Shown one piece after another: positions 9,790 to 57,176 of a stretch of 60,609 bases of DNA (position 1 is the first letter of the stretch; every line of letters begins with the position of its first letter). Source of the DNA: an uncultured Planctomycetia bacterium (GTDB lineage Bacteria > Planctomycetota > UBA8108); NCBI GenBank assembly GCA_964390645.1, contig CAYMLL010000010.1, positions 1 through 60,609 of the forward strand, in the 5' to 3' direction. The notes under the pieces were generated by a model. The model was not told where the DNA came from. It was given only the letters and a program-made list of their open reading frames with translations, and ran no database searches. Made by a program: the position numbers and the translations under genes.

Positions 9790-9964
9790 GAGAGGATCTC
9801 CGGGTGAGGACAAGGAGGGAGTATAACGTAAGCGGGCGGACTCGTCGTCCTTGTTCGGTCCCGTCTCCGACGCGATCCGGGGTCGAGGCTTGGACACCCG
9901 CTCCTGTCGCGACTACAATTCCTCCGTTCCTTCCTTCCGAGCCGGTGGACTCTCGGTATCTACG

Positions 9965-11878
9965 ATGCCCAGGATCGAGCGATTGCCTCCCGAAGTCGTG
10001 GATCGGATTGCTGCCGGCGAGGTGATCGATCGTCCGGCGAGTGTCGTCAAGGAGCTCGTGGAGAACGCGATCGACGCGAACGCGACCGAGATTCTCGTCG
10101 ATCTCGAGGAGGGCGGCTCGAAACGTCTGACCGTGCGGGACAACGGGTGCGGCATCAGCGCCGAGGACTTGCCGCTCGCGTTCGAGAGCCACGCTACGAG
10201 CAAGCTACGTCCCGAGGATTTCGAGCGCAGCCTCTTCGGTGTTGCGAGCCTCGGTTTCCGTGGCGAGGCTCTGCCGAGTATCGCGTCGGTCGCGGACGTC
10301 GAGATCGTCTCGCAGACCCCTCGCGGCGAGTGTGCGCACCGCCTGCGCATCAACGCCGGCCAGGCTTCGGGCGAGGTCCAGCCAGCTGCGGGCGAGCCGG
10401 GAACGGTGATCGAGGTGCGCGACCTGTTCCACAATGTTCCGGCGCGGCGGAAGTTTCTTCGCAAGGGTAGCACGGAGCTGTCCCACGTCATTCAGAGGAT
10501 CACACGCATCTCGCTCGCGTATCCGTCGATTCGCTTCCTGGTGACGAATCAAGGCCGACGTTCACTCGACCTTCCGGCGAGCGAGGGTCTGCGCGATCGG
10601 TTGCTGCGAGTCGTCGGGCGTGACAAGGGAGGCGAGCTGCTCGAGGTGGGGCTCGAGCCTTCGTCCGACGACGACTCGACTCCGACTCTCCACGGTTATG
10701 TCAGCCCGCCGAAGCTGCGCCGGGGAGACTCCCGCATGCAGCACTTCTTCGTCAACGGCCGCTGGGTGAAGGACCGCCTCTTCACCGCCGCGCTGCGGGC
10801 GGCGTACCAGGGATTTCTGATCCCCGGGAATCACCCCGTCGCTTACATCTTTCTGGAGTTTCCGGACGACGCGGTCGACGTCAACGTCCATCCCCAGAAG
10901 TCCGAGGTTCGCTTTCGCGACCCGGGGTTGCTCTACCCGTTGATCTACGGCGCGGTGCGCCGTGCGCTCGAGGTCCGCGGGGTGGACGACGTGCCGCCGC
11001 GCGCGAGCGTCGAGTCGGACGACCGCCCGAGGGCCGGTGATGTCGATCGTGAGCGTGTCCGTCAGGCCGCGCTGGATTTTCTCTCCAGGCCCGATCGAGA
11101 GCCGGCGCGGCCGTACGCCACTGCTCGGGGGGCCGTGTCGCCGCCGCGTTCCCGCGACACGCCGTCGACGCCCCGTGACGAGTCCATCGAGCCCGTCGCG
11201 CCGGATCGAGCCGACATTGCCGCGTCGGATCGAGCCGATTCCGTCGCGTCGGAGCCGACGGGAGGTCCCCGGCGGGCGTTCCAGATTCTCGACTCGTACA
11301 TCATCGTCGAGTCCGGCGACGGCATCACGATGATCGATCAGCACGCGCTCCACGAGAAGATCCTCTTCGAGGAGATCCATGACCGTCTGCAGAGCGGCGA
11401 GGTTCTGAAGCAGAAGCTGCTGGTGCCGGAGATCGTCTCGCTGCCGGTGCACCAGACGCCGCTGATCGAGCAGGCGTGCGAGTTGCTCGCGGGTTGCGGT
11501 TACGATGTCGAGCCTTTCGGAGGCGGCGACGTGGCGATTCACGCGGTGCCGGAAATCTTCGAGCGCCGCACCGGCTCCTCGAGCGCGACCGAGATCGTCT
11601 GCGACGTGTTTCGTTGGCTCGACGTGGAGGGAGATCGAGCGCGTTCGCCGAACGAAGGCGAGAGCTCCGAGGTCGTCGCCGGGCGTCTGCGGGATCTGGC
11701 GAGCCTGATGGCGTGCAAGCGCGCGGTGAAGGCGGGCGCGCGGTTGAGCGATGACGAGATCGAGGCCCTTCTGGATCGCTCCGATCTCGCGGTCGACCCT
11801 CGGCACTGCCCCCACGGTCGCCCCACCACGGTGCGTCTGACGGCGCGAGAGATCGAGAGGAAGTTCGACAGGAAGTGA
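9965..11878 (+). CDS. mutL: DNA mismatch repair endonuclease MutL
   Basis: IAAGEVIDRPASVVKELVENAIDA, DNGCG, HATSK, LGFRGEAL, VDVNVHPQKSEVRF. C-terminal endonuclease motifs DQHALHE, ACKRAVK and CPHGRP. Confidence 0.97.
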   Translation: MPRIERLPPEVVDRIAAGEVIDRPASVVKELVENAIDANATEILVDLEEGGSKRLTVRDNGCGISAEDLPLAFESHATSKLRPEDFERSLFGVASLGFRGEALPSIASVADVEIVSQTPRGECAHRLRINAGQASGEVQPAAGEPGTVIEVRDLFHNVPARRKFLRKGSTELSHVIQRITRISLAYPSIRFLVTNQGRRSLDLPASEGLRDRLLRVVGRDKGGELLEVGLEPSSDDDSTPTLHGYVSPPKLRRGDSRMQHFFVNGRWVKDRLFTAALRAAYQGFLIPGNHPVAYIFLEFPDDAVDVNVHPQKSEVRFRDPGLLYPLIYGAVRRALEVRGVDDVPPRASVESDDRPRAGDVDRERVRQAALDFLSRPDREPARPYATARGAVSPPRSRDTPSTPRDESIEPVAPDRADIAASDRADSVASEPTGGPRRAFQILDSYIIVESGDGITMIDQHALHEKILFEEIHDRLQSGEVLKQKLLVPEIVSLPVHQTPLIEQACELLAGCGYDVEPFGGGDVAIHAVPEIFERRTGSSSATEIVCDVFRWLDVEGDRARSPNEGESSEVVAGRLRDLASLMACKRAVKAGARLSDDEIEALLDRSDLAVDPRHCPHGRPTTVRLTAREIERKFDRK

Positions 11879-11891
11879 CGGGACCGGTATC

Positions 11892-13187
11892 TTGGCCGCC
11901 GACATGAGCATCTCGAGCCCACCGAGCTTCGAGCATTCGGAGCTCCCTAACGGCGTCCGTCTCGCGACCAACCGCAATCACAAGCTCAAGACGATCCTCG
12001 TCAAGGCGTTCTTCACCGCCGACCTCGACGAAGAGGTGACGTGGCGGGCCCTCGTTCCGATGATTCTCCGTCGCGGCACTCGTACGCTGCCCGACATGCA
12101 GCAGCTCAGCCGTCGTCGCGAGGATCTCTTCGCGTGCAATCTCTACTCGAGCCTCTCCAAGGTCGCCGAGTGGCATGTCGTACGATTCACGCTGGACGTC
12201 GTCAACGAGACCTTCCTTCCCGGCGAGGATGGGGTCCTTCAGGGTGGGCTCGAGCTCATGCGTGACCTCGTCCACGACCCCCTCCTCGAGAACGGCGCTT
12301 TCCGGGCCGACTACGTCGAGCAGGAGAAGGAGAACCTGCGGCTGACGATCGAATCGCTCATCGATGACAAGGGACGCTACGCCGCCGTGCGCTGCGTCGA
12401 GGAGATGTGTCGAGACGAGCCATACCGCCTCGGTGAGAACGGCCGTGTCGAGGATCTTCCCTCGATGGACGCGGAGCGGCTGGCGCGCTTTCAACGAGAG
12501 TGGTCGAGCCGCTCGCCGCTGTCGGTCTATGTCGCCGGCGACATGGATCCCGAGCTCGCCGCGGAGCGTGTCTCCGAGGTGTTCGGTGGAGCGCGCGGTG
12601 AGCCGCGCGAGCTAGCGCCGCTGCCGGACCCTGTCGACGTCGCAGGGGTCCGCGTCATCGAGGAGAAGCTGGACGTCAATCAGGCGAAGCTCGTCCTCGG
12701 GTTCCGTCACGACATCCGGGTGGGAGACCCCGGCGACGAGGCCCTCGTGATGATGAACACCGTTCTCGGCGGCGGCGGAAACTCGCGCGCAAAGCTGTTC
12801 CAGAACGTGCGCGAGAAGGAGAGCATGGCCTACTCTGCCTACTCCTCGGTCGACCGCCTCAAGGGTCTGGCGTCGATCTCCTGCGGCATCGAGATCGACA
12901 AGTACGACAAGGCGCTGAACCTCTGTCTCGAGCAGATCGAGGCCATCCGTCGCGGTGATATCTCGGACGCCGAGCTCGACTCGGCCCGCGAGATGATCCT
13001 CGAGTCGAACCGCATGCTGGAGGATGACTTCTCGACGCTTGCCGAGCTCGACTTCGCGCGATCTCTCTGCGGCCAGTCACTCGATCTCGAGGGCTTCCGC
13101 CGGCGGATACGAGCGGTGACGCGGGATGACGTCGTTGCGGCAGCGGGTCGGCTGAGGCACGACACGACCTACTTCTTGCGGAACTGA
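11892..13187 (+). CDS. M16 family peptidase-like subunit, YmfF-like (no HxxEH, probably non-catalytic)
   Basis: KLKTILVK, ALVPMILRRGT, NQAKLVLGFR, SRAKLFQNVREKESMAYSAYS (M16 C-domain). No Zn-binding HxxEH. Start may be ATG 11904. Confidence 0.85.
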   Translation: MAADMSISSPPSFEHSELPNGVRLATNRNHKLKTILVKAFFTADLDEEVTWRALVPMILRRGTRTLPDMQQLSRRREDLFACNLYSSLSKVAEWHVVRFTLDVVNETFLPGEDGVLQGGLELMRDLVHDPLLENGAFRADYVEQEKENLRLTIESLIDDKGRYAAVRCVEEMCRDEPYRLGENGRVEDLPSMDAERLARFQREWSSRSPLSVYVAGDMDPELAAERVSEVFGGARGEPRELAPLPDPVDVAGVRVIEEKLDVNQAKLVLGFRHDIRVGDPGDEALVMMNTVLGGGGNSRAKLFQNVREKESMAYSAYSSVDRLKGLASISCGIEIDKYDKALNLCLEQIEAIRRGDISDAELDSAREMILESNRMLEDDFSTLAELDFARSLCGQSLDLEGFRRRIRAVTRDDVVAAAGRLRHDTTYFLRN

Positions 13188-13293
13188 TGGGTTTCTCGCG
13201 AGCCGGACAGCGCGTGCCGCTGAGTGCCGTCGTCCGGGCCGGCCTGACTGCAGTCCCGTTTCGCCCGGAACGTCGATGAAGAGCTGACGAACG

Positions 13294-14586
13294 ATGCAGA
13301 ACTCGAGCATGGAACACGTCGAGAGTCCTACTCTGCGTGAGGAGGTCTTTCACCTGCGGCTCCCGTCCGGCCTGACCGTCTCCTTTTGCCCCAAGCGGGG
13401 GTTCCAGAAGAAGTACGCGTGCTATTCCGCGGCCTACGGCTCCGTCGACAACGAGTTCATCGGCGCCGACGGTGAGCGGGTCCGGGTCCCCGACGGTATC
13501 GCCCACTTCCTGGAGCACACGCTGTTCGAGAACGAGGAGGCGAACGTCTCGGACCTCTTCTCGCTGAACGGCGCTTCGAACAACGCGTACACCTCCTTCA
13601 CGCAGACGACCTATCTCTTCTCGTCGAGCGATCACTTCTTCGACAACCTCGGGCTGCTCGTCGACTTCGTCCAGACCCCGGCCTTTCGCGCCGAGAAGGT
13701 CGAGAAGGAGCGTGGCATCATCAAGCAGGAGATCAGCGGTTACGAGGACGATTCGGGTTGGGTCGGCTACATGGGGCTGCTGGAGAACCTCTTCCAGAAG
13801 CACTCGATGCGGATCGACATCGCCGGCACGGTCGAGTCGATCGCCGACATCGATGTCGACACTCTGCAGCGCTGCTACGACCGTTTCTACCATCCATCCA
13901 ACATGCACCTCTTCGTCGCCGGTGACGTCGACCGCGACGAGCTGTTCCAGTTCGTGTCCGGTCGCTCTCGCGTCAAGGACGGCGTCGGCAGGCCGATCGA
14001 GCGCCTCTACCCGTCAGAGCCGGTCGAGGTGGCGAACGTTCAGACGCGGCGCAACATGGACGTCGCGATGCCGAAGCTGCTCGTGGGCTTCAAGCAGACC
14101 GATGTGCCGCGCAGCGGCAGGGAGTTCGTGCTGCGCGAGCTCGTCAGCCAGATGTGTCTGAGCCTGCTCTTCGGGCGCTCCAGCGACGCGTTCCTCGAAC
14201 TCTACGGCAAGCAGCTGATTCTCGACGACTTCTCGGCCGGCTACGACGCCGAGGCCGGCATCGGCTTCGCGATCATCAGCGGCGATACGCCGAGGCCGGA
14301 CGAGCTCCTGGAGGAGATCCTCCGCCATGCGCGGAAGGCGTGCGAGAGCGGGCTCGACGACGCCGACTTCGAGCGTGGAAAACGGAAGTTCATCGGCAGC
14401 TTCATACGGGGCTTCAACTCGCTGGAGTACATCTCCAACAACTACACGTACTACCACTTTCATGACTTCGACCTCTTCGAGACCATCGATATCCTCGCCA
14501 CGGTGCGTCGGGAGATGCTCGAGGAGCGCATGCGCCAGCTGCTTCGCCCCCGGGGCTGCGCCTCCTACGTGATCCTGCCGAGGTAG
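13294..14586 (+). CDS. M16 family zinc peptidase, YmfH-like
   Basis: YGSVDNEF, PDGIAHFLEHTLFE (HxxEH), SNNAYTSFTQTTYLFS, VEKERGIIKQEI, IDIAGTVESI, FYHPSNM. Confidence 0.9.
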   Translation: MQNSSMEHVESPTLREEVFHLRLPSGLTVSFCPKRGFQKKYACYSAAYGSVDNEFIGADGERVRVPDGIAHFLEHTLFENEEANVSDLFSLNGASNNAYTSFTQTTYLFSSSDHFFDNLGLLVDFVQTPAFRAEKVEKERGIIKQEISGYEDDSGWVGYMGLLENLFQKHSMRIDIAGTVESIADIDVDTLQRCYDRFYHPSNMHLFVAGDVDRDELFQFVSGRSRVKDGVGRPIERLYPSEPVEVANVQTRRNMDVAMPKLLVGFKQTDVPRSGREFVLRELVSQMCLSLLFGRSSDAFLELYGKQLILDDFSAGYDAEAGIGFAIISGDTPRPDELLEEILRHARKACESGLDDADFERGKRKFIGSFIRGFNSLEYISNNYTYYHFHDFDLFETIDILATVRREMLEERMRQLLRPRGCASYVILPR

Positions 14587-14622
14587 CCCGTCGCGTGTCG
14601 TAAGTCTTTTTTCCGCTTTTCG

Positions 14623-14651
14623 TTGGCCGCTTCGGTGGGGGATTCTACAAT
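14623..14651 (+). promoter_or_regulatory. Putative sigma70 promoter of the MoxR/vWA operon
   Basis: TTGGCC (14623-14628), a 17-nt spacer, then TACAAT (14646-14651), about 40 nt upstream of ATG 14690. Confidence 0.55.
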
Positions 14652-14689
14652 AACTCCCGATACCGGCACCCAGGATCCGGGCGGCAACG

Positions 14690-16570
14690 ATGGAACACGC
14701 TGATTTCCCCGCTTCCGGGAGTGAGGAACGGCCGCCCACGAGCGGCGGCAATCCCGGCCCGTCGCCCCTGCGGCGCGGAGATGACGGGCGCCGGCTGGTG
14801 GACAGCGAACCGGTGAGCCGGGATCTCCTCTCGTCGTCCCTCGGCTGTGTCCGGCGGCGACTCTTCCTCGGTCGTCTGCTGCGGGCCGCGAGTCTCGACG
14901 CCCTGATCTTCGGGTCCCTCTGGGCGCTGGCACTGGCGGCCGAGCGGGCCTTCTCCTTCGGGATCGACCCGCTGCTCGCCCTGGCGGGTTGCAGTGGGCT
15001 CTGGCTCCTTGTCAGCGTCTCGAGGACCGCCATCTTCGGACGTGTGGACGAGAGAGAGGCGGCGATGGCGACGGACGCCGGTCTCGAGCTCGAGGAGCGT
15101 GTCTCGAGCGCTCTCTATTTGCGCGATCACCCGGGGACGCGTGAGGACAGCGAGTGGAGCGAGCTCGTCTACCGGGACAGCATCCACGTCTTGCGCGACG
15201 CCGACATCCAGCGGCACTTTCCGCTGCGGCTGCCGCGCCTCATCTGGCTGTCGGCGGCACCCCTGCTCGCCGCCACGGCTCTGTGGATCTGGATGCCGGA
15301 CCTCGACCTGCTCGGTTACGACGCCGATCGACAGGCCGACGCCTCGATGCGAACGGATATCGCCGAGGCGAAGAAGGACGTCGTCGACGAGCTGCGCCAG
15401 CTGCAGGCGCAGGCCCGAGACCAGGAGAGCGCAGAGCTCCGGAAGATCATCGAGGAGCTCCGTGAGCAGATGGAGAGGACGGTGTCGCGGAGCTCACCGC
15501 GGGGCGAGCGGGTGGCGCCTTCCGGCGAGTGGGCGAAGAGACGCGCCCTGACGCAGGTCTCCAGGCAGATCGACGGGATCCGCAAGCGGCTCGCGGGCGA
15601 TCGGAGATTCCAGGACGCTCGCAAGGCTCTCGAGCAGACGCGGCGCGCGGGTCGCGACCTCCCGCAGGTCGCCGGGGAGCTCGACGAGCTCCGCAAGCAT
15701 GTGGGGAGACTCGCCGAGAAGAAAGACGGTTCGCCGGAAGGACTCGACGAGAAGGACAGGAAGCGCCTCGATCGGCTGTCCGAGGAGCTCCGGCAGCTGG
15801 CGCGCGGCATGAAGTCTCCACGCGGACTCGGTAGCGCCCTGAGTCAGATCTCCACGGGCCTCAGCGGCAACGACCTCCGGCAAGCGCTCGACGGTCTGCA
15901 GCTGTCGCGCCAGGAGCTCGAGTCGCTGGTCGAGGACCTCGACCGGATGGAGCTGCTCGAGAAGACCCGTCGCGCGCTCGAGAAGGCGCAGCAGAAGCTC
16001 GCGAAGATCAGCAAGCACGAATGCCCGAACTGCGGCAAGTCGCGCTCGCCGGAGCCGGGCCAGAAGCCTGGCGGCACGTGAAAGGGCGGCGCGGGCGGCA
16101 CGTGAAGTGGCGCTGGAAGCGAGGCTGGCGGTCGCCAGCCCGGACAGGGGCTCGGCAAGCTGACGCGGGCACCGGCCGCTGCGCAGGGTCGGGAGGGTGC
16201 TGCGGGTTCGTCGGTCGGCAGCCGGAGCGGACCGCAGGGCGGTCGCGCCACCGGGCAGCGCGGCGTCGGCTCGCGGACGCCTCACGACTTCGAGCTCCGG
16301 AAACCGGGCGCCAGGAGCGGTATGAGCCGGGGTCGGACGGTCGGCGATTTTCGGGTGGAAGGCGAGTCCGAGAAGGGCCAGGTCACGGTGCCGCGCTCAC
16401 CGGAGTTTTCGAGTGTCCTCAGGGACGCATCGGAGCAGGTGGACAGCGAGTCGCTTCCTGTCGAGATGAAGCAGATCGTGGAGCAGTACTACGATTCCCT
16501 TCTGCGAGGCGGTGCGGTCCGGAGCCGTGCGGTCGACGGTGGTGGGGACGGGAACGGAGCGGGGGAATAA
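14690..16570 (+). CDS. Membrane-anchored coiled-coil protein of the MoxR/vWA operon; candidate 626-aa selenoprotein with two in-frame UGA codons (codons 464 and 472)
   Basis: ORFs 14690-16081 and 16322-16570 are in the same frame. The only stops between them are TGA 16079-16081 and TGA 16103-16105, in ECPNCG...GGT*KGGAGGT*SG. The intervening frame is Gly-rich and open to a plausible helical C-terminus (ESLPVEMKQIVEQYYDSL) and TAA, 23 nt before the next gene. N-terminal TM helices and a long coiled coil. Confidence 0.8.
16070..16106 (+). repeat. 13-bp direct repeat GGCGGCACGTGAA, each copy containing one in-frame TGA
   Basis: Copies at 16070-16082 and 16094-16106, a 24-bp (8-codon) period. 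Confidence 0.95.
16094..16114 (+). promoter_or_regulatory. Candidate bacterial SECIS hairpin for the first UGA
   Basis: GGCG-G-CAC [GUGAA] GUG-G-CGCU: 7 pairs with one G.G mismatch. The loop starts with GU, 20 nt after UGA 16079-16081. Confidence 0.45.
16123..16140 (+). promoter_or_regulatory. Candidate bacterial SECIS hairpin for the second UGA
   Basis: GGCUGGC [GGUC] GCCAGCC: perfect 7-bp stem. The GGUC loop starts 24 nt after UGA 16103-16105 and matches the loop core of the E. coli fdhF SECIS. Confidence 0.65.
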
Positions 16571-16593
16571 GAGCCCCCTGCGTCGGTCGAGCA

Positions 16594-17601
16594 GTGAGCA
16601 TCACGGTTCATGCAGCCAGCGCGGCGACGTTGGTCGCCTTCGTCGTCCTCGCCGCGGGCGCCGGGTGCTCGAGGCGGTCCGTCGGCTCACCGGGCCGAGC
16701 TCCGGAGCTGATCGTCGGCTCCGTGGGTCGTGACCTCGGACGGTTCGAGTTTCCGCGCGCGATCACCGTCGACTCGCTTCGCGGGCGCTTCTGGGTCGTC
16801 GATCGGGCCGGCCGCATCCAGCTCTTCGACACGCGAGGTACCGCCGTCCGGGTGTGGGAAGTTCCCCGGACGGAGAACGGCGCGCCGGTGGGCCTTCACG
16901 TCGATCGCGACGGCACGCTTCTGGTCATGGACAGTCACTACCAGCGGGTTCTTCGCTATCCGCCCGAGGGTGGCGCGATTCTCGGCCGGTTCGGGACCAG
17001 CGGCAAGGGACCCGGGCAGTTCACGTTCGGACGGGACGTGGTCTGCGACCGCGAGGGGCACATCTACGCGGGAGATTACGGCGGCGACAACGATCGCATC
17101 CAGAAGTTCACGTCCGACGGCGGCTTCGTCCGTGAATGGGGTAGCCAGGGCGCGGGGCCCGGACAGTTCAACAAGATCCAGGGCATGACGATCGAGAGGG
17201 CCGAGGGCAGGGAGCTCATCCTCGTTGCAGATCAGTGCAACCATCGCGTGCAGCGTTTCGACCTCGACGGCAACTTCGTCGCCAGCTTCGGGACGCTCGG
17301 CACCGACCCGGGCCAGCTGCGCTTCCCGTCCGGCGTCGCGGTCGACGCTGACGGAGGGATCTACGTCAGTGAATGGGGCAACAACCGCGTGCAGAAGTTC
17401 GACCGCGACGGCAGCTCTCTCGGCATCTGGGGCGGCCCGGGGGAAGGCCCCGGAGAGCTGAAGACACCGTGGGACGTCGAGGTCGGCGCCGACGGCCGCA
17501 TCTACGTCGTCGATTACGGCAACCACCGCGTGCAGGTGTTTCGATGGGGTGACACGGCCGGCGCGAGCCAGGTGGTGACAGGCGGAGGCGATCAGCGATG
17601 A
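16594..17601 (+). CDS. NHL-repeat beta-propeller protein, probably a lipoprotein or exported
   Basis: Repeated NHL units (GRFEFPRAITVD, GPGQFTFGRDV, GQFNKIQGM, GQLRFPSGVAVD, GELKTPWDVEV, NHRVQVF). Hydrophobic N-terminus ending AGAGC. True start is probably GTG 16594; the track's 16021 extension overlaps the upstream gene. Confidence 0.88.
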   Translation: MSITVHAASAATLVAFVVLAAGAGCSRRSVGSPGRAPELIVGSVGRDLGRFEFPRAITVDSLRGRFWVVDRAGRIQLFDTRGTAVRVWEVPRTENGAPVGLHVDRDGTLLVMDSHYQRVLRYPPEGGAILGRFGTSGKGPGQFTFGRDVVCDREGHIYAGDYGGDNDRIQKFTSDGGFVREWGSQGAGPGQFNKIQGMTIERAEGRELILVADQCNHRVQRFDLDGNFVASFGTLGTDPGQLRFPSGVAVDADGGIYVSEWGNNRVQKFDRDGSSLGIWGGPGEGPGELKTPWDVEVGADGRIYVVDYGNHRVQVFRWGDTAGASQVVTGGGDQR

Positions 17602-20600
17602 GCGGGCTGTCGCTGGAGTTCGCGAGCGGGTGGTGGCTGCTGCTTCTGGCGCTCTTGCCGGTCGTCTACCTGCTGTCGCGCGATAGTCTGGCCGGTCTCG
17701 GCGGTGGCCGCCGCAGGGTCGCGGTGGCGCTGCGGACGATCTCGCTCCTCCTGGTCATCCTCGCGCTCTCTCGCGCACGCTTGCTGAAGCAGAGCGAGTC
17801 GCTGAGCGTCATCTTCGTCGTCGACCGCTCTGACAGCATTCGCCCGCAGATGCGACAGCAGATTCTCCGCTACGTGATGGACGAGGCCCAGCACGATCGT
17901 CGTGAGAGCTCGGGGGACCGGGTCGGCGTCGTCCTCTTCGGGAAGAACGCGGGCGTCGAGGTGTTGCCGGACGACCGCGCCTTCGACATCACGGACTTGA
18001 GAACGCTCGTCGACACCGGTGCGACCGATATGCAGGCGGCGATCCGTCTCGCGGTGACCGCCTTTCCTCAGGAAGTCGGCGGCAAGCGGCTCGTTCTCTT
18101 CACGGACGGCAACGAGACGCAGGGCGCGGTGCTGGAGGAGATCCGCAACGCCCGATCGCTCGGCGTCACCGTGGACGTGGTGCCGATCCACTCGAAGGTC
18201 GAAGACGAGTTCTGGGTCGAGAAGGTCATCGTCGACCCGGAGGTACAGGTCTCCGAGCCCTACGACCTCAAGGTCGTCGTCGGGTCGAACCGCCAGACGA
18301 CCGCGCGCATCACCGTTCACGAGAACGGCGTGCTGATCTCGGATCCGGACGACGTCCACGACCTGAAGAAGGGAAAGACCATCATCCCCTTCCGCGGCCT
18401 TCGTCGTGACAGGCCGGACTTCTACGACTACGAGGTGCGCGTGGAGCCGCTCGTCAAGGGTCTCGACGTCATCGATGAGAACAACAGGGGTACTGCGTTC
18501 GTGTTGATCAGGGGCGAGCCGAGGGTCCTCTTCGTGCTGCCGGGGGGCAGTGAGGAGGAGTTCCAGCGCCAGAAGGACCGTGACCGGTCGCTCCTGACGG
18601 CGCTGGCGACCGGGAAGATCAAGGTAGACGTCGTCCGCGCCGACTTTCTACCGCGCGAGTCGGGCGAGTATCTCGACTACGACGCGATCATCTTCTCCAA
18701 CGTCGGCGCCCATGAGCTGACGCAGGAGAAGATGAACCTGATCCACGGGCTGGTCTACGGCATCGGGACGGGCTTCGTGATGATCGGCGGCGAGCACAGC
18801 TTCGGCGCCGGCGGCTATCAGGGAACACCGATCGAGAAGCTCCTTCCGGTGGACATGGACATCAAGCAGCGCAAGGTTTTGCCGAACGGCGCGCTGGCCT
18901 TCGTGGTGCACTCGTGCGAGCTCGGCAACGGCAACCGTTGGGCGAGGCAGGTCGTGCAGCGAGCGATTCGCATCCTTTCGCCGCGCGACTATTGCGGTGT
19001 CCTCTATCACGACGACGTCGCGCAGGAGCAGTGGCTGTTCGACATGTCGCTCTGCAGCAAGAAGCCGATGATGCTCCGCAAGCTGCGGAACTTCAGTCCG
19101 GGCGACATGATGTCGTTCCAGCGGGTCTTCGAGATGGCCGCCACGGGCCTGGCGCGCGCGGACGCGTCGATCAAGCACATGCTGATCCTGTCGGACGGCG
19201 ATCCTGCCCGACCCCTTCCGGGGACCGTGCGTGATCTCGTCGACAAGGGGCAGGTGACGATCTCGACGATCTGCTACGGCGCGCACGGCGGGGGGCCGCC
19301 GCCGATCATGCAGGAGCTGGCTGCGGAGGGAAACGGTGAGTTTTACCACCTGAAGAATCCCGCAAAGCTCCCCGAGATCTTCATCCGCGAGGCCACCACG
19401 ATCCGTCGGTCGCTGCTCCTGAGCGATCCGTTCATTCCACGGCTCACGGCGATGGGACCCTTCACGGGCGTGTTCGAGGCCACGCTCGCCTCGGGCGGCT
19501 CGATCCCGCAGCTTGACGGGCTCGTCGTTACCTCCGCGAAGCCGCTCGCGACACTGCACCTCATCCGTCCCTCGAAGGAGGACGACCCGTCCGAGGATCC
19601 CTTGCTGGCCAGCTGGCACTACGGGCTCGGCAAGTCGGTCGCGTTCACGTCCGACGCGGGTGGCTCGTGGGGAAAGCACTGGGCGAACTGGAGTGGCCAC
19701 GACCGCTTCTGGCTCGAGACCGTACGCTGGGTCTCGCGCAGTCGCGGCGAGGCGCCCTTCCGTGTCAGTCGCCAGATCGAGGGCGATCGCGCCAGGGTTA
19801 TCGTCGATGTGATCGACGAGGCTACCGGACGGCTCGACAGCGACCTGTCGATCGAGGCCCGGGTCGTGGCTCCCGCGCCGGGACACGAGATCACGAGTGT
19901 CGACGCGCGGCAGACGACGTCTGGCCGCTACGAGTTCGAGTTCGCTGCCGGCGAGGAAGGCACGTACACGATCGGAATCCAGTACGAGCGTGAGGACGGC
20001 ACGCGAGGGAGCTACACGACGGGGCTGTCGGTCTCCTACTCGCCGGAGTTCCTCTACCGCGATGTCAACGAGGTGCTGCTCAGGCATGTTGTGGATGCGG
20101 CAGATGGACGCTACTTCGCAGGAAGCGACGACGACGAGGTCGATTTCTTCTCGCGGGACTTCATCGCGACGAAGAGCGTCCAGGACATCTGGAGCAGCCT
20201 GCTCGTCTTCGCTACCCTCCTCTTCTTCGTCGACATCTTCGTACGTCGTGTGATGATCGACTACTCCGCGGTGGCGTGGAGGTCGATGGCGTTCGTCAGT
20301 GGGCTCTTCAGAAGGAAGAGCCCGTCCGGGGAGGACGGCGAGCTGCTTGCCGCTCTGCTGCGGAAGAAGGAGGAGGTGCGTCGGAGCGAGGACCGCGCGG
20401 CTGTGGGGCGAACCCCTTCGGGGAAGCCGGCAGCGAGCTACGAGGCGAAGGAGGCGAACGAGTCGGACAGGTCCGTGGAGGCCACCGACGACGCGGGAGC
20501 CGCGCTCGAAGGGCGCGAGGGCCAGGGGCCCAGGAAGGCGGAGTCGAAGAAGCCGTCGAGTGAGGAGGCAGAGGAATCCGGGTACACCGGCCGACTTCTC

Positions 20601-20645
20601 GCTGCCAAGCGCCGTGCGCAAGGGAAGAACGAGAAGAAAGACTAG
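17598..20645 (+). CDS. Large membrane protein with vWA domains and a glutamine-amidotransferase-like domain
   Basis: N-terminal TM helices. MIDAS motif VDRSDS...TDGNET. GFVMIGGEHSFGAGGYQGTPIEKLLPV. Second vWA-like region (HMLILSDGDP). PLLASWHYGLGKSVAFTSD. C-terminal TM helix. ATGA overlap with the upstream gene. Confidence 0.85.
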   Translation: MSGLSLEFASGWWLLLLALLPVVYLLSRDSLAGLGGGRRRVAVALRTISLLLVILALSRARLLKQSESLSVIFVVDRSDSIRPQMRQQILRYVMDEAQHDRRESSGDRVGVVLFGKNAGVEVLPDDRAFDITDLRTLVDTGATDMQAAIRLAVTAFPQEVGGKRLVLFTDGNETQGAVLEEIRNARSLGVTVDVVPIHSKVEDEFWVEKVIVDPEVQVSEPYDLKVVVGSNRQTTARITVHENGVLISDPDDVHDLKKGKTIIPFRGLRRDRPDFYDYEVRVEPLVKGLDVIDENNRGTAFVLIRGEPRVLFVLPGGSEEEFQRQKDRDRSLLTALATGKIKVDVVRADFLPRESGEYLDYDAIIFSNVGAHELTQEKMNLIHGLVYGIGTGFVMIGGEHSFGAGGYQGTPIEKLLPVDMDIKQRKVLPNGALAFVVHSCELGNGNRWARQVVQRAIRILSPRDYCGVLYHDDVAQEQWLFDMSLCSKKPMMLRKLRNFSPGDMMSFQRVFEMAATGLARADASIKHMLILSDGDPARPLPGTVRDLVDKGQVTISTICYGAHGGGPPPIMQELAAEGNGEFYHLKNPAKLPEIFIREATTIRRSLLLSDPFIPRLTAMGPFTGVFEATLASGGSIPQLDGLVVTSAKPLATLHLIRPSKEDDPSEDPLLASWHYGLGKSVAFTSDAGGSWGKHWANWSGHDRFWLETVRWVSRSRGEAPFRVSRQIEGDRARVIVDVIDEATGRLDSDLSIEARVVAPAPGHEITSVDARQTTSGRYEFEFAAGEEGTYTIGIQYEREDGTRGSYTTGLSVSYSPEFLYRDVNEVLLRHVVDAADGRYFAGSDDDEVDFFSRDFIATKSVQDIWSSLLVFATLLFFVDIFVRRVMIDYSAVAWRSMAFVSGLFRRKSPSGEDGELLAALLRKKEEVRRSEDRAAVGRTPSGKPAASYEAKEANESDRSVEATDDAGAALEGREGQGPRKAESKKPSSEEAEESGYTGRLLAAKRRAQGKNEKKD

Positions 20646-20706
20646 CGTGGCGGCCGCGAGCACAGGGCGTGGACCGTGTTGATCAGTTTCGAGCAGGAGA
20701 CAGTGA

Positions 20707-21711
20707 ATGGCCACAGCAGCCGGTTCCATCGAAGAGAGGGCCGCCGGGTTTCGCGACAAGTTCAACGCCATCCGCGTTGAGATCGGCAAGATCGTCGTCG
20801 GTCAGGAGGAGATCGTCGAGCAGGTGCTGAGCACGCTCTTCGCCGGTGGTCATTGCCTGCTCGAGGGTGTTCCTGGACTCGGGAAAACGCTCCTCGTGCG
20901 CACGTTGAGCGAGGTTCTGGATCTCCGCTTCAGCCGTATCCAGTTCACCCCCGACCTCATGCCGGCAGACATCCTCGGCGTCAACATGGTCACCGAGGAC
21001 GATCGTGGCCGACGCCACTTCGAGTTCCAGAAGGGGCCGGTGTTCGGCCAGATCGTTCTGGCCGACGAGATCAACCGTGCAACTCCGAAGACGCAGTCGG
21101 CTCTCCTCGAGGCGATGCAGGAGAAGACCGTCACGGTCAGTGGCGAGCACTTCCGGCTCGAGGCTCCGTTCCTCGTCATGGCGACGCAGAACCCGCTCGA
21201 GATGGACGGAACCTATCCGCTTCCCGAGGCGCAGCTCGACCGCTTTCTCTTCAAGGTCCTCGTCGGCTATCCGTCGCGGGAGGATCTTTCCACGGTTCTC
21301 GACCGCACCGTGGACCCCTACTCGATGCGTCCGCGGCAGCTCATGGACGGCCCGGAGATCGAGGAGTGGAAGTCGCTGGTTCGCGATGTCGTCGTCGCTC
21401 CGCACGTCAAGGATTACGGCATCCGACTCTGTCTCGCCACGCACCCGGGGGGCGAGTTCGCCGTTCCCGCGGTGAACCGGCTCGTGCGCTACGGCTCGAG
21501 CCCGCGTGGCGCTCAGGCGATCATGCTCGGCGCGAAGATCCGTGCGCTGCTCGACTCGCGCTACAACGTCAGCTTCGAGGATCTGCGTCGCTGCGCGCTG
21601 CCGGTCCTGCGGCACCGCCTGCTGCTGAACTTCGAGGGGGAGGCCGAGGGCGTCTCCTGCGACACCATCATCGAGGAGATTCTCGAGAACACTCCCGTGG
21701 AGGAGAAGTAG
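20707..21711 (+). CDS. moxR: MoxR-family AAA+ ATPase
   Basis: Walker A GVPGLGKT, RIQFTPDLMPADI, Walker B LADEINRATPKTQSALLEAMQE, ATQNPLEMDGTYPLPEAQLDRF, VLRHRL. Confidence 0.95.
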   Translation: MATAAGSIEERAAGFRDKFNAIRVEIGKIVVGQEEIVEQVLSTLFAGGHCLLEGVPGLGKTLLVRTLSEVLDLRFSRIQFTPDLMPADILGVNMVTEDDRGRRHFEFQKGPVFGQIVLADEINRATPKTQSALLEAMQEKTVTVSGEHFRLEAPFLVMATQNPLEMDGTYPLPEAQLDRFLFKVLVGYPSREDLSTVLDRTVDPYSMRPRQLMDGPEIEEWKSLVRDVVVAPHVKDYGIRLCLATHPGGEFAVPAVNRLVRYGSSPRGAQAIMLGAKIRALLDSRYNVSFEDLRRCALPVLRHRLLLNFEGEAEGVSCDTIIEEILENTPVEEK

Positions 21712-22605
21712 GTGGCGCAGAAGCTCCTCGACGACGAGTTTATCGCCCGCCTCGAGAAGCTGGAGCTGGTGTCGAGAAAAGTCCTCGCCGGCACCTTCAA
21801 GGGAGAGAGGCGCTCTCGTCGCCGCGGCCACTCGACCGAGTTTGCGGACTTTCGCCCCTACGTCCATGGTGATGATCTTCGTCATGTCGACTGGAACATC
21901 TACGGGCGCCTCGACAGGCTCTTCCTCAAGGTCTTCCTCGAGGAGGAGGATCTGCGACTGGACATCCTCATCGACGCGAGCCCGTCGATGAAGTTCGGCG
22001 AGCCCGACAAGTTCACGTACGCGAAGAAGATCGCCACGGCGCTCGGCTACATCGGTCTCGTCAACCAGGACCGCGTCAGCGTGGGGGCCTTCTCGACACG
22101 CCTTCAGTCGACTTTCGGGCCGGCGCGCGGTCGGCGGCAGGCGCCTCGACTGCTCGACGCGATGCAGAGCCTCGAGCCCGAGACAGAAGGCTCGACGGAC
22201 CTCGCTCGGAGCTGCAAGGACTACACCGCTCAGGGCTCGCGCGGCGGCATCCTGGTCTTCGTCACCGATTTCTTCGACCGCGTGGGGTTCGAGTCCGCGC
22301 TGCGCTATCTGCTCGCGAGTCCTGGCGCGACGGAGGTCTTCGTCTTCCACGTGCTCTCGCCGCAGGAGGTAGAGCCGGATCTCAAGGGCGATGTGCGTCT
22401 CGTTGATGTCGAGGACGGTGCCACCTCGGACGTGACGATCAGCGCGCCGCTTCTGCGTCAGTACCGGAAGACCGTCGAGAGCTTCCGCCACGACATCAGG
22501 ACGTTCTGCTCGGCGCGCGGGATCAGCTACGTGTTCACCACGACCGATGTGCCCTTCGACGAGCTCGTGCTGAGCTACCTGCGTCGCAGAGGGCTCGTGA
22601 GATGA
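21712..22605 (+). CDS. DUF58 domain protein
   Basis: GHSTEFADFRPYVHGDDLRHVDWNIYGR, IDASPSM. Sits directly after moxR, the typical arrangement. Confidence 0.93.
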   Translation: MAQKLLDDEFIARLEKLELVSRKVLAGTFKGERRSRRRGHSTEFADFRPYVHGDDLRHVDWNIYGRLDRLFLKVFLEEEDLRLDILIDASPSMKFGEPDKFTYAKKIATALGYIGLVNQDRVSVGAFSTRLQSTFGPARGRRQAPRLLDAMQSLEPETEGSTDLARSCKDYTAQGSRGGILVFVTDFFDRVGFESALRYLLASPGATEVFVFHVLSPQEVEPDLKGDVRLVDVEDGATSDVTISAPLLRQYRKTVESFRHDIRTFCSARGISYVFTTTDVPFDELVLSYLRRRGLVR

Positions 22606-24554
22606 CGCCTGTCTGGTGGCTCCTCGCCCTCATTCCGGCGCTGGTGGCGCTCTACTTCCTGAAGTTGAAGCGCCAGGACGTCGCCGTTTCCAGCACGTAC
22701 CTGTGGAAACGTAGCATGGAGGATCTTCATGTCAACTCGCCGTTTCAGCGCCTGCGTCGTAGTGTGCTGTTCCTGCTGCAGCTGGTCGCTCTCTGCCTCC
22801 TCATACTCGCGATCTGGAAGCCGCGCTGTGACCGTACGGTACGAGGCGGGCGCGATCTGATCGTTCTCATCGACCACTCCGCGAGCATGAACGTGCGGGA
22901 GGGCGGCCGGACTCGACTGGAGCTCGCCCGGGCTCATGCGCTGTCGCTCGTCGACAGCATGGCTGTCGGTGACCGCATGCAGGTGCTGCGGTTCTCGTCG
23001 CAGACGATCGTCCAGCAGTCGCTGACCTCCGACAAGTCGGTCCTCGAAGCGAGCGTTCGTGCAATCGAGTCGTCGTCGCTGCCCACGGATCTGTCGCAGG
23101 CGCTGAGTATCGTCAACTCGATGGCCGCGACACTCGACGGCGTGGAGATTCACGTCATCGGCGATGGCTGCTACGGCGACGTGACGAGCTTGCCTCCCGA
23201 GGTGAAGCGCCTCGACCTGCGATTCGTGAACACGGGGAGCCCGGTCGACAACGTCGGCATCACGGAGGCGGACGTGCGCTGCAGTCTCGGGCGCGACAGG
23301 GTGACCGAGGTCTTCGCTCTCGTCGAGAACTTCTCGGGCGAGGAGAGGACCGTCTCCGTGACTCTCTTTCGGGACGATGTTCTGAAGCGGGCAACCGAGG
23401 TGACCCTGCCGTCCGGGAAGGGTGAGTCGGTGGTGTTCGACGTCTCGGAGATCGAGATGCCCGCGGGCGAGAGTCGCGTCCTGGGTCTGGAAATCGATCT
23501 CGTGGGTCCGGACGGGGAGAACATGGAGGCCGACGGGTTTCCTGACGATGACCGCGCCTTTCTCGGCGTCCCGGCGCCCAGGACCAACTCGGTGCTGCTT
23601 GTCGGGGAAGGAAACGTGTTCATCGAGAATGCCCTCTTATACGTACCGAACACGACCCTGGAGAAGATGACCCTCGCGGACTACGAGGCGACGCTCGTCG
23701 AGCCGGGCGACGGCGAGTCGTCGTCCGAGCCGAGGAGGTGGAATCTGATCGTCTTCGATCGGGGCGGCCCGCGGACACCGCCGCGGTCGCCCGCGATTTT
23801 CATCGGCTGCAAGCCGCCGTCGCTTCCCGGTGTTGCCGATCCGAAGATGGTGGAGAGCCCCGTCTACATGGACAAGGACGAGGCTCACCCGGTCAACCGC
23901 TTCATGAGCTTCGCGAACATCCACATCGAGGAGAGCCTGGTCTACGAGCCGTCACCGGCCTTTCATGCGCTGATCGAGTCGGAGGAAGGCGGGCTGATCG
24001 GCACCTTCACCTATCGTCAGGAGGGCGAGTATCCGGTACGCGTCGTCGTGGTCGGTTTCGACATCACACGCAGCAACTGGCCGATCCATCACCACTCGTT
24101 CCCGATCTTCTTCGTCAACGCCGTCACCTGGCTTGGACTGACGGACACGGAGTCCGTCCGGCGCTGGCGTACCGGACAGTCGCTCGTTCACTCTCCCGTG
24201 ACGGGTCCGGGCGAGACGGTGAGGGGGGGGGCGACCTTCGTCTCGCCGGGAGGCGAGGAGGTCAGCGTGCGGCCCGACCGCGGCGGCTCGATGGTCTCGG
24301 GCGTCGCGGACCAGATCGGCGTCTACCGCCTGCGGCGCGAGAGCGACCTCCTCGCCGAGTTTCCGGTGTCTCTCATCGATCGCCGGGAGTCGAGGTTGAC
24401 CCCGGCGGAGGAGATCGACATGGGAGACATCAAGATCTCGACCAGGACGCGGCTGGACTTCGAGTCGAGCGCTCTGTGGCACTGGTTCGCGCTCGCCGGC
24501 TTCGTCTTCCTTCTGATCGAGTGGTACGTCTACAACCGACGGGTCTACATCTGA
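22602..24554 (+). CDS. BatA-domain/vWA membrane protein
   Basis: N-terminal BatA-type segment (LLALIPALVALYFLKLKR...VSSTYLW...LQL), MIDAS IDHSASM, C-terminal TM helix ending LIEWYVYNRR. Confidence 0.9.
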   Translation: MTPVWWLLALIPALVALYFLKLKRQDVAVSSTYLWKRSMEDLHVNSPFQRLRRSVLFLLQLVALCLLILAIWKPRCDRTVRGGRDLIVLIDHSASMNVREGGRTRLELARAHALSLVDSMAVGDRMQVLRFSSQTIVQQSLTSDKSVLEASVRAIESSSLPTDLSQALSIVNSMAATLDGVEIHVIGDGCYGDVTSLPPEVKRLDLRFVNTGSPVDNVGITEADVRCSLGRDRVTEVFALVENFSGEERTVSVTLFRDDVLKRATEVTLPSGKGESVVFDVSEIEMPAGESRVLGLEIDLVGPDGENMEADGFPDDDRAFLGVPAPRTNSVLLVGEGNVFIENALLYVPNTTLEKMTLADYEATLVEPGDGESSSEPRRWNLIVFDRGGPRTPPRSPAIFIGCKPPSLPGVADPKMVESPVYMDKDEAHPVNRFMSFANIHIEESLVYEPSPAFHALIESEEGGLIGTFTYRQEGEYPVRVVVVGFDITRSNWPIHHHSFPIFFVNAVTWLGLTDTESVRRWRTGQSLVHSPVTGPGETVRGGATFVSPGGEEVSVRPDRGGSMVSGVADQIGVYRLRRESDLLAEFPVSLIDRRESRLTPAEEIDMGDIKISTRTRLDFESSALWHWFALAGFVFLLIEWYVYNRRVYI

Positions 24555-40016: not shown

Positions 40017-43000
40017 TCAGGTGTCACGGCGCGAGATCTTGCCGCCGCCGATGACGTGGACGGGAACCCCGGGAGCCTGCTCGCGGAAAACCTCGACCAC
40101 CGTCGGGTGACAGGTGAAGAACAGGACCTGGCGGTGCTTGGCCATCTGCAGGATGCCGCCGACGGCGGCAGCGGTTCTCGTCGGATCGAAATTCACCAGG
40201 ACGTCGTCCATCAGGATCGGCAGGGCCTCGGTGTCTGTCGATTGCGCCGAGATGTAGCCGAAGCGGATGGCGAGGTAGAGCTGCTCCATCGAGCCGCGGG
40301 AGAGATTCTCGGCTTCCTTGCTGCGTCCGTCGCGGTCGGTGACCTGCATGGAGTTCCCGCCCGGGGGAGCGAAGACCTTCGTGTAGCGGCCGCGGGTGAT
40401 GGTCTCGAAGTACGTGCAGGCCTCCCGGATGACCCGGGGCTGGTTGGCCTGGGCGTGGCGGTCCTTGGCGGTATCGAGAAGATAGCTGGCGACGGCGTGG
40501 CGGGCCCAGTCGCGGGCAGCCACGGCCAGATCCTCGAGGAGTCCCTCCTCCTCGGTCCGCAGCCGCGCCACCCGGTCCTCGCTGTCGAGGGCCTGCCGAT
40601 GGTTCTCGGCGGCGCCCCGCTTCTGGAGGGAATCATCCTGGGCGGCTTCCAGCTCGTCGACGCGGTCGCTCAGCTCGTCCTTCTCGGCGACGAGACGGTC
40701 GCGGCTCTCGCCCGTCAGCTCGTCTCTGAGAGCCGGGAGGTCGGGTGTGCCGGCCACCTTCTTGATGGCGGACTCGTGTGTGGCGATTCTCGTGCGGAGG
40801 TCCCGGAGCTCCTCGTCGGCCTTGCCTCGACGCCGGAACTCCTCCTCCCCCTTCGCGTCGCCTGACTCGATGAGCTCGTTGCGCTCTGTCTCGGCTTGCT
40901 GGAGTCGCTGCCGGCGGATACTGCAGCGAGCCTCGGCCTCGGAGATGTCGCTGGAGAGCTGCTCGTGGCGAGTGCGACGGGTCTCTTGCTCCGCCCGGTC
41001 CTCTTCCAGGCGGCGGATCTCCACGAGAAGCTCCCGTTCCTGCGGTGAAGGACGGTCGAGGGTTGTGAAGACGTTGGCGACGCGCTGCCGGTAGTCCCTC
41101 GCCACCTTCTCTGCGCGGGCCACATCGCTTGCGGCGGACTCTCGATCGCCCGTGATCTCGGCCAGCCGGATGACGCGATCGAGCGCGTGGCCGGCGGTGT
41201 CGGGCGACCAGCCGGGATCCATATCGTGCTCTTCGAGCCACTGCTTCCAGGCGTCCTGGGCCGCAAGCCGCTTCGTTTGCAGAGCCGCCAGGTCGGCCTC
41301 CGCCTCCTCGCGCTTGCGGTCGGCGACGGAGGTGCGGCGCTCCACGTCTTCGAGGGCGGATCGAGCGCTCTCCAGGTCGCGCAGCCGCTCCTCCTGCTGA
41401 CCGATCTCGGCCAGGAACTCGCCGAGCCCGGCGAGGATGGCGTCGTCCTTGCCGTCCACCAGCTGCGCCAGGCGCGGCACCTTCGCCATCGTCTTCAGGT
41501 AGCCGGCCCGGGTGGTCTTCATGGCCTCGATACGGACGAGGAGCTCATCGGCGCGGCGCTGGTCGACGCGGGCCTTCTCGACCTTCGGGAAGACCAGTCC
41601 GGCCGCGCGCGGGCTGGTGTCCGCGGGCAGACGCAGGGCTTGCACATGCTCCGCCCACTCCTTGGCGGTGGAGGCGGCCTTTTCCTGCGCCTTACTCCAG
41701 GTGACCTGCGCGGCGTTCAGCTCCTTCTCTGACTGCGCCAGACGGGCGGAGAGCTCGTCGATGGACTGCGCGTCACGCAGTCGCTCGTCGCTCTCGTCGG
41801 CGAGTCGATCGACGGTCGCCAGATCGAGTGCGCCGCTGAACCCCAGCTGCTTCCGGAGCTCGTCGATGGCGGCGTTCTTCTCGCCGACCCGGTCCCGCAG
41901 CTTCTCCGCGCGCCTTGCTGCCCCGGTCGGATCCACGTGGGAGCGACGGCTGCCGGTGAAGACTCTGCGGACGAGCATCAGCGCGGCCGCGAGCAGGACC
42001 CCCAGTGTCGCGGACGCACCGCCGGCCATCGCCTGATCCAGGCCGACGAGGACGCCGGCCGCGAGCAGCCCGACGACCGCGACGCTCACGGCGCAGAACA
42101 ACAGCAGCCGTCCGACATCCGGGCCGGCGACCGCAGCCGCTCCCGCCGCGGCCATCTCCTGCTCCTGCTGCGCGAGAGCCAGCCGTCCTTCCGCCACGTC
42201 GCGGTCGCGCACCGCCTGTCGGAGCTCACGGGTGCGGGCTCGGCGGGCCTCGAGATCGACGGTCCTGGCGACCGTGCCGCCGCCGGCCTCCAGCGGCGCC
42301 TGCTTCTCCTTCAGTGTCCGCCGGATCTGCTCGACGACAGCCTGGGCGGTCTTGACGCCTGTCCTTGCATCGTGGACTGCAAGTTCCGTCTCTCGAATCG
42401 CTCTGTCGAAGCGCTCGATCTTCTGCTGGGCGGGAATGGAGACATCCAGCTCCCCGAGGGTCTGCGCGGTCCAGTCCGGGTCGATCTCGCGCAGGGTGCC
42501 GGTGAAGGCTGTCGACGCGTTGGCGTGCTCGGCCTCGCGCAGTGGAAGGTCTTTGAGCACGCTGGAGAACTGATCCCTGCCGTTGCGCAGACCGTCCAGC
42601 GTCGGGCGGTCGATGTCCAGACCGGCGTCCTCGAGCTTCTCGACCCGTTCGCGGACCTGCTTCTCGTCGTCCCGCGCGTCGCCGAGTGCCGTGGTCCGGC
42701 TGTTGAGTTCGGCGGAGAGAGTCGTGGAGCGTGCTTCCCACCGCGTCAGAGTCTTCTTGTGGCTGGCGATCTCCTCCTTGACGTGTGCCGACCGGTCCAG
42801 CGCCAGCGCGCGTTCCTCGGTCCAGCCGCTGCCGAGCTCGGTGAGCCCACGGGCCACGTCGGCGTCGCGCTGCTGGACGCGAGACTTGAAAGCGGGGATG
42901 CTCTGGATGCTGGTCTCGTAGGTTTCGAGACTCTGTACCAGACCTTTGATCTCGGCACCCTGGTGCAGCAGGGCTTCGTCGAAGCTCAGACTGTTCAGCT

Positions 43001-56912: not shown

Positions 56913-57176
56913 TCCGATGTCCTCGATACGCGTGCGACTCTCGCCGTCAGCGGCCGAACGGCACCCGGTCGTGTGCCTCCATGATAACCGCTCGCCATCC
57001 TCGGGCGACAGCAAGTTGACGGCGGGCGCTCTCGCGGGGCGGGTGTGGGCGCGCATTGACCTCGCTCCCTCGATGGACGAAGGGGACCGCGCACGGTGAG
57101 CCGCTCCACGCGCTCCGGACCCGTCGGTCGTCGCCGCCGCGACGGCCGTGCTCTCGTCGATACGCGGCCGGCGGCC

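Follow-up and report, generated by a model that had tools for sequence, protein, structure and literature searches.

The in-frame UGA of Escherichia coli fdhF is read as selenocysteine (Sec) through a selenocysteine insertion sequence (SECIS), a hairpin that lies in the coding sequence just 3' of the UGA. In the bacterial SECIS model used by bSECISearch, the apical loop lies approximately 16 to 37 nucleotides (nt) from the UGA and a G is found among the first two loop bases. Eukaryotic selenoprotein P carries serial Sec codons served by two SECIS elements in the 3' untranslated region, which act at a distance via SBP2 and eEFSec, and truncated products are expected when decoding fails. In bacteria, predicted proteins with two Sec residues include an FmdB-family regulatory protein (UxxU), the metal-binding protein MbdU, a putative mercuric reductase (UxxU), and TsoB (UxxxxU); a CU type has been predicted too (PMC13188914). 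Here, we analyzed a 60,609-nt stretch of DNA from an uncultured Planctomycetia bacterium (the window) and focused on the gene at positions 14690 to 16570, in which two in-frame UGAs (UGA-1 and UGA-2) are each followed by a SECIS-like hairpin (hairpin 1 and hairpin 2). It is likely that this gene encodes one 626-residue protein of a Planctomycetota family and that both UGAs specify Sec, each by way of its own hairpin.

Both hairpins resemble the fdhF element in their position within the coding sequence just 3' of an in-frame UGA, and hairpin 2 shares its GGUC apical loop, which in fdhF starts 21 nt after the U of the UGA and here begins 24 or 27 nt after that of UGA-2. Unlike the fdhF element, which has a bulged U, hairpin 2 has a perfect stem of 7 base pairs (bp); the loop of hairpin 1 is different and not conserved; and the two elements are separated by 8 nt, the second UGA being contained in the loop of the first element. 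Like the predicted double selenoproteins of bacteria, the protein would carry two nearby Sec residues in a cysteine (Cys)-rich and probably metal-binding motif. It shows no sequence relationship to those proteins, however, and NCBIfam, which models their families, gave no match. The Sec residues are also spaced differently, at 7 to 11 residues in this family compared with 2 to 4 in the others, which leaves room for a separate hairpin at each UGA, and the host is a Planctomycetota protein of approximately 600 residues with a predicted membrane anchor and a long charged, probably helical region. Table 1 of PMC13188914, which lists 119 families, contains no comparable family and no selenoprotein for MoxR/DUF58/VWA clusters; our gene lies within the conserved order of such a cluster (MoxR AAA+/DUF58/VWA, BatA type). 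The serial Sec codons and the truncated products expected when decoding fails recall selenoprotein P, from which the gene differs in having a local coding-region hairpin for each UGA.

The open reading frame (ORF) beginning at 14690 runs for 463 codons up to UGA-1, and the same frame continues past UGA-2, so that the C-terminal domain is reached only when both UGAs are decoded (coordinates are given in Table 1). Across the two codons the peptide reads ...KHECPNCGKSRSPEPGQKPGGT-U-KGGAGGT-U-SGAGSEAGGRQPGQ..., and the GGT-U motif is encoded twice by the direct repeat GGCGGCACGTGAA, which may be the trace of a small internal duplication. We confirmed the placement of both TGAs and both hairpins in the original prediction, including the intervals from UGA to loop (20 nt for UGA-1 and hairpin 1, 24 nt for UGA-2 and hairpin 2) and the nesting of UGA-2 within the loop of hairpin 1; in 12 of 13 lineages, UGA-2 is located inside that loop or next to it. 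The prediction's comparison with fdhF is likewise sound: the GGUC loop is present in NC_000913.3 and starts 21 nt after the U of the UGA. The frame ends in TAA, the only TAA among 21 stop codons checked in this window of 67% GC.

A word-indexed search for relatives returned four homologues with 44 to 97% identity, all of which end in ...PGQKPGGT or ...PGGS. An exhaustive profile search gave 779 relatives, 29 of them with E < 1e-30, and 26 cluster representatives were retrieved. Twenty-five of these representatives stop at ...C..CGK...(K)PGGT or at the variants PGST, SGGT, and GGGG; a single protein, P0023, continues, to 594 residues. We obtained the corresponding DNA from 14 lineages (the window, L001, L002/3, L004, L008/9, L016, L021, L027, L035, L049, L050/51, L052, L053, and L056). 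Taxon labels are present for a minority of these lineages and are all Planctomycetota, the label also carried by the genome matches and NCBI records for relatives.

The stop that follows PGGT is TGA in all 14 lineages. Downstream DNA is available for 13, among which the L004 contig ends early; in all 12 whose contig reaches the C-terminal domain, the frame stays open for approximately 150 to 190 further codons, the last of which encode a conserved domain (...DG....GEA.............E.VE.E.LP.EY...V..Y...L). In 12 of the 13 lineages, the first TGA is followed 7 to 11 codons later by another in frame, and L004 carries TGC (Cys) there. We also scanned genomes with a hand-made DNA pattern that accepted any T[AG]N at site 1 and left site 2 unconstrained; it found four Planctomycetota genomes (L016, L021, L027, and L035), and all four have TGA at both sites. 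A genome scan with the alignment of close homologues gave no match, and a metagenome scan gave no further locus. A pseudogene or a sequencing error was rejected, given that assemblies made independently share both TGAs. Genome-wide reassignment of TGA was also rejected: TGA is the stop codon of 12 of the 21 other genes in the window, and therefore the code is not reassigned.

Two further observations concern the codons and their surroundings. Of 26 sites read, 25 (24 of the 25 TGA codons and the L004 TGC) have A or C as the next base and one has G, and U is never seen; in E. coli, A and C after UGA are weaker contexts for termination by release factor 2 (RF2). A subgroup consisting of P0018, P0026 (L056), P0028, and P0030 has an extra Cys-rich insert before the PGGT-TGA site, with the pattern CPxCGTPYCxDCGKPxCxCKPG.KPGGT up to the TGA, and this insert suggests a larger metal-binding module in some lineages.

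To compare hairpin 2 among 13 lineages, we anchored the alignment on GGUC, and the resulting alignment is gap-free. The loop is invariant in all 13, and in every case its distance downstream of the U of UGA-2 is either 24 or 27 nt (27 nt in the window, counted to the first loop G). The stems differ from lineage to lineage (GGCUGGC/GCCAGCC, GGGCGGC/GCCGUCC, GAGCGGC/GCCGCUC, GGCCGC/GCGGUC, GCUCC/GGAGC, and GGGCUCU/AGGGCUC); 95.6% of cells in the seven stem pairs are paired, and six of the seven pairs are altered on both sides. The covariation score is 0.636, compared with 0.219 for shuffles, none of which reached the observed value in 500 trials, and with at most 0.134 for slid controls. Because the peptide encoded at this place varies between lineages (GGR, RGR, SGR, or SGQ), with the covarying bases in different codons, protein constraint fails to explain the conservation of the hairpin.

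The element is also distinctive within its own genes. Compared with sliding windows of the same genes, hairpin 2 falls within the best 0.9% in 12 of 13 lineages. On both strands of the window, there are nine GGTC-loop hairpins with stems of at least 5 bp, and only hairpin 2 has an in-frame TGA 18 to 30 nt upstream. In 151,750 bases, a covariance model of both hairpins recovered the 13 sites already known and no others, and it had no match in L055, the locus of P0023, which has Cys at both sites; no GGUC-loop hairpin is present at the corresponding place in this all-Cys locus.

Hairpin 1 is more variable. In 12 of 13 lineages UGA-2 is surrounded by a hairpin, but the stems differ in sequence, bulges, and register, and include GGCG-G-CAC/GUG-G-CGCU, GGAG-G-CACC/GGUG-G-CUCC, GGAACC/GGUUCC, GGCGCC-A-CC/GG-GGCGCC, CCUGGC-G-GC/GC-G-GCCAGG, and GGAAGGAC/GUUCUUCC; the stem contains a G.G mismatch in seven lineages. 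The distance from the U of UGA-1 to the start of the loop is 23 nt in the window and 23 to 32 nt across lineages. On a sequence-only alignment, 73 to 74% of cells pair under a single consensus structure, and RNAalifold, applied to the MAFFT alignment, recovered hairpin 2 and returned hairpin 1 as weak and shifted. Both results are poor owing to the lineage-specific register of hairpin 1; for this hairpin, alignment with a covariance model gave no improvement on MAFFT.

Two alignment-free tests nevertheless support it. The first was an arm-swap test with chimeras that take the 5' half from one lineage and the 3' half from a different one. Native hairpins had a mean folding energy of -15.9 kcal/mol compared with -10.95 kcal/mol for chimeras, and in 20,000 permutations the native mean was never reached; the exception was L027. 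In comparison with sliding windows of the same genes, hairpin 1 ranks within the best 1.7% in 9 of 13 lineages and at 6 to 8% in three (7.3% in the window), and it is absent in L027. That lineage (minus strand, approximately 701 to 761) has the widest spacing of the two UGAs, 36 nt, and is the only one in which UGA-2 lies outside hairpin 1. It carries GGAGG[GCGG]CCUCU, which ends at the U of UGA-2 within an outer UCCGG/CCGGA stem and places its loop approximately 28 nt from UGA-1. These comparisons suggest that the distance to UGA-1 is the constrained quantity for hairpin 1, and the nesting of UGA-2 would follow from the 24- to 33-nt spacing of the two UGAs. Hairpin 1 is the weaker of the two elements.

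To align the protein sequences, we masked U as X, which prevents the predicted Sec positions from being pulled toward Cys. The site 1 column is Cys in 12 full-length homologues (GG.C, as in GGTC, GGLC, GGNC, GAGC, and others), and at site 2 both P0023 and L004 have the corresponding Cys. The full-length Cys homologues carry both halves of the protein in one polypeptide. P0023 is encoded in the order M16, M16, P0023, NHL, and VWA/GATase1-like and, judged by this gene order, is an orthologue. Distant relatives have CxxC-x3-CxxC at the corresponding position (e.g., NCKQCQGAGCKMCQ), a sequence pattern of the zinc-knuckle or zinc-ribbon-like kind, and the CPNC...U...U arrangement resembles a four-ligand knuckle with Sec in place of the second Cys pair. 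The two Sec and two Cys residues of this predicted site may bind a metal or be redox active.

Together, these results support the earlier proposal that each UGA has its own SECIS-like hairpin; the support consists of the TGAs, the open frame beyond them, the Sec/Cys pairs, compensatory change in the stems, and the absence of hairpin 2 from the all-Cys orthologue. Covariation in homologues that keep TGA, which the original prediction had looked to, is seen at six of seven pairs of hairpin 2 and, by arm swapping, in hairpin 1 of every lineage except L027. The loop distances (23 nt, range 23 to 32, for loop 1; 27 nt, and 24 or 27 across lineages, for loop 2) agree with the cited range of 16 to 37 nt. 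As for the G expected at the start of the loop, hairpin 2 has an invariant GGUC, and hairpin 1 has GUGAA in the window and lacks a GpU step in four lineages.

Several results weigh against this interpretation. The predicted stability of a 111-nt region containing the hairpins does not exceed that of dinucleotide shuffles (z = 0.58; of 200 shuffles, 142 were at least as stable). The minimum-energy fold includes hairpin 1, whose mean pair probability within 16079 to 16160 is 0.89; that of hairpin 2 is 0.26, and the ensemble probability of hairpin 2 falls to 0.10 when more downstream sequence is included. The low value for hairpin 2 is due to a competing pairing, GCCAGCCC/GGGGCUCGGC, for which we found no equivalent on reading the L001 sequence; when 16092 to 16145 is folded alone, both hairpins form with a probability of approximately 1. 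The concern that alternative folds might dominate this region is thus justified in part for hairpin 2 in the window sequence, while hairpin 1 stays at 0.89. Since the thermodynamics of the window are insufficient, the question is decided by the comparative data, in which the lineages are related, so that each conserved TGA does not count as a separate event. Hairpin 1 has no conserved loop sequence (GUGAA, UGACAG, UGAAGC, or UGAC) and is without the GpU step in the four lineages mentioned; its distance from UGA-1 varies by approximately 9 nt, and in 12 of 13 lineages its position is tied more closely to UGA-2 than to UGA-1. L004 (4054 to 4117) keeps UGA-1 and a perfect 7-bp GGUC hairpin 2, though its site 2 is TGC; either the change from Sec to Cys was recent or hairpin 2 has a role beyond UGA-2. 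Within the 60-kb window, we found no selA, selB, or selD by Pfam among the 30 other ORFs, no selC, and, in a tRNA scan, no tRNA gene of any kind; some Planctomycetes are reported to have the complete set of selA, selB, selC, and selD (PMC4807772). Rfam gave chance-level matches alone and no SECIS family in the whole window at the gathering score or in 16040 to 16200 up to E = 10, a negative that carries little weight because bacterial SECIS elements have little conserved sequence (PMC13326102).

An alternative is that only hairpin 2 is a SelB-binding SECIS, in which case UGA-1 would rely on hairpin 2 from a distance or on some other means of decoding. Hairpin 1 might then pause the ribosome, hide UGA-2 from RF2 until the ribosome arrives, or simply reflect the self-complementary codons of GGT-U-SG; its unconserved loop, its tracking of UGA-2, and the 73 to 74% pairing on the sequence-only alignment all agree with such a role, and L004, which has UGA-1 alone yet keeps hairpin 2, would fit a hairpin 2 that serves UGA-1. 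We regard this explanation as unlikely, given that the distance from UGA-1 to the GGUC loop is variable and amounts to 48 to 60 nt, far beyond the range tolerated in E. coli SECIS spacing, that the arms of hairpin 1 covary between lineages, and that hairpin 1 of L027 is shifted upstream, where it stays approximately 28 nt from UGA-1.

Two other explanations dispense with Sec. Near-cognate tRNAs could insert Trp, Cys, or Arg at the UGAs, with the hairpins and weak termination contexts stimulating read-through to a low-level, C-terminally extended isoform; the A or C that follows the codon at 25 of 26 sites and the lack of Sec machinery in the window are consistent with this. Such read-through would be very inefficient at two serial UGAs, yet the C-terminal domain is conserved, and it leaves aside the Sec/Cys correspondence at both sites (including the orthologue with the same gene order), the fdhF-like GGUC loop at a fixed SECIS-like distance, and the loss of the hairpin where Cys replaces Sec. 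We consider it very unlikely. More improbable still, indeed barely credible, is that UGA-1 is a true stop of a 463-residue protein, followed by a separate small gene or noncoding DNA in which the hairpins are chance features of GC-rich sequence or an intergenic signal for transcription or translation. Every gene caller does end the protein at UGA-1, an ATG-initiated ORF lies downstream at 16322 to 16570, long open frames are common at 67% GC, and the fold is no better than that of shuffles. Full-length Cys homologues nevertheless unite both halves in one chain, the stop is invariably TGA and is followed by a conserved second in-frame TGA, conservation of the C-terminal domain starts well upstream of the ATG at 16322, and the stems covary. 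The locus therefore most likely represents, on sequence evidence, a previously unannotated double-Sec family with tandem SECIS-like hairpins, in which the nesting of the second UGA is unusual but explicable.

If both UGAs are Sec codons, they would be decoded by the standard bacterial route, in which SelB with GTP and Sec-tRNA(Sec) is tethered to a coding-sequence hairpin just 3' of the UGA. With UGA-1 in the A site, hairpin 1, whose apex is approximately 25 nt downstream, would deliver the first Sec. The ribosome would then advance eight codons and melt hairpin 1, exposing UGA-2 from its loop, and hairpin 2, whose GGUC loop lies 27 nt further on, would deliver the second. Failure at either UGA would allow RF2 to terminate translation and yield a membrane-anchored product of 463 or 471 residues that lacks the C-terminal domain. 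The proportions of the truncated and 626-residue products might depend on selenium. We infer SelB binding and this order of events from the arrangement of the elements. Recoding of the fdhF UGA in E. coli is reported to be 30 to 40% efficient (PMC4513850); by extrapolation, two UGAs in series at that efficiency might give approximately 10 to 15% full-length product. It is conceivable, though unlikely, that the placement of UGA-2 in the loop of hairpin 1 is a selected coupling device, by which SelB on hairpin 1 would shield UGA-2 and impose an obligatory order on the insertions; the gene might then act as a steep selenium sensor that switches between a truncated, membrane-anchored form of 463 residues and the full-length form, with the two differing in a role connected with MoxR/VWA.

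From its N-terminus, the predicted protein would comprise a membrane anchor, then a long charged segment, the small Cys/Sec knuckle, a glycine-rich linker, and the C-terminal domain (Table 1); the composition of the charged segment suggests that it is probably helical or coiled coil. For the window gene, the conserved pattern of the C-terminal domain is ...G.VG...EGE..KG......PEFS.......E.VD.E.LPVE.K.IVE.YY.SLL, and the separately called fragments P0005 to P0007 match this domain. Pfam and NCBIfam release 20 gave no significant match for the full-length protein or for seven full-length homologues, and a profile search of PDB sequences with the C-terminal domain had no match. An AlphaFold model of the C-terminal domain only was of low confidence, with a predicted local distance difference test score of 55.7.

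Table 1. Coordinates of the predicted double-selenocysteine gene and its elements in the window
Feature	Positions	Strand	Details
Full frame of predicted selenoprotein	14690-16570	+	626 codons by translation; predicted Sec at codons 464 and 472; TAA at 16568-16570
N-terminal hydrophobic region, predicted membrane anchor	14885-15295	+	Kyte-Doolittle segments at residues 66-84, 90-110, and 184-202; conserved across the family
CPNC motif	16022-16033	+	Cys445 and Cys448; both Cys invariant in 23 homologues
Direct repeat GGCGGCACGTGAA	16070-16082 and 16094-16106	+	Exact, 13 nt, read from the sequence; copies 24 nt apart, one per UGA
UGA-1, predicted Sec codon 464	16079-16081	+	Context PGGT-U-K; TGA in 14/14 lineages; Cys in 12 full-length homologues
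Hairpin 1, proposed SECIS for UGA-1	16094-16114	+	GGCG-G-CAC[GUGAA]GUG-G-CGCU; UGA-2 in loop
UGA-2, predicted Sec codon 472	16103-16105	+	Context GGT-U-SG; in apical loop of hairpin 1; TGA in 12/13 lineages
Hairpin 2, proposed SECIS for UGA-2	16123-16140	+	GGCUGGC[GGUC]GCCAGCC; perfect 7-bp stem; GGUC loop at 16130-16133
Conserved C-terminal domain	16307-16567	+	In frame in 12 TGA lineages and 13 full-length Cys homologues

The gene lies in a cluster (9851 to 24554) with the order MutL, two M16 peptidases, the predicted selenoprotein gene, an NHL repeat protein, a VWA and GATase1-like protein (1015 residues), MoxR, DUF58, and BatA, and this order recurs in L001, L049, L053, and L055. A 526-residue ORF at 16021 to 17601 is an over-extended version of the NHL gene (approximately 16600 to 17601), which runs in another frame into the 3' part of the predicted selenoprotein gene. 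Elsewhere in the window, the minus strand at 54192 to 57056 encodes a PSCyt1/PSCyt2/PSD1 (DUF1549/DUF1553) protein; PSCyt1 is the Pfam family "Planctomycete cytochrome C," and these planctomycete-type domains support the taxonomic assignment of the window. A 1298-residue AAA_27/AAA_23 ATPase followed by a calcineurin-like phosphoesterase (40017 to 45169, minus strand) looks like a nuclease pair of the SbcC/SbcD type.

If the interpretation holds, these genes have been misannotated throughout: the called proteins of the TGA form end at the first UGA, carry the NCBI name "hypothetical protein" in this truncated state, and have their C-terminal domain missed or called as a separate small gene. 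The GGUC-tetraloop stem at 24 or 27 nt after the UGA would provide a planctomycete SECIS signature that could seed searches for further selenoproteins, and a tandem pair of elements whose second UGA sits in the preceding loop would be a natural system in which to study SelB at closely spaced Sec codons. The finding would add a double-Sec family, with the truncation signature in at least 25 clusters at 50% identity, to the approximately 119 families catalogued, and it would do so in a phylum with few described selenoproteins and within a MoxR/VWA cluster whose function is poorly understood.

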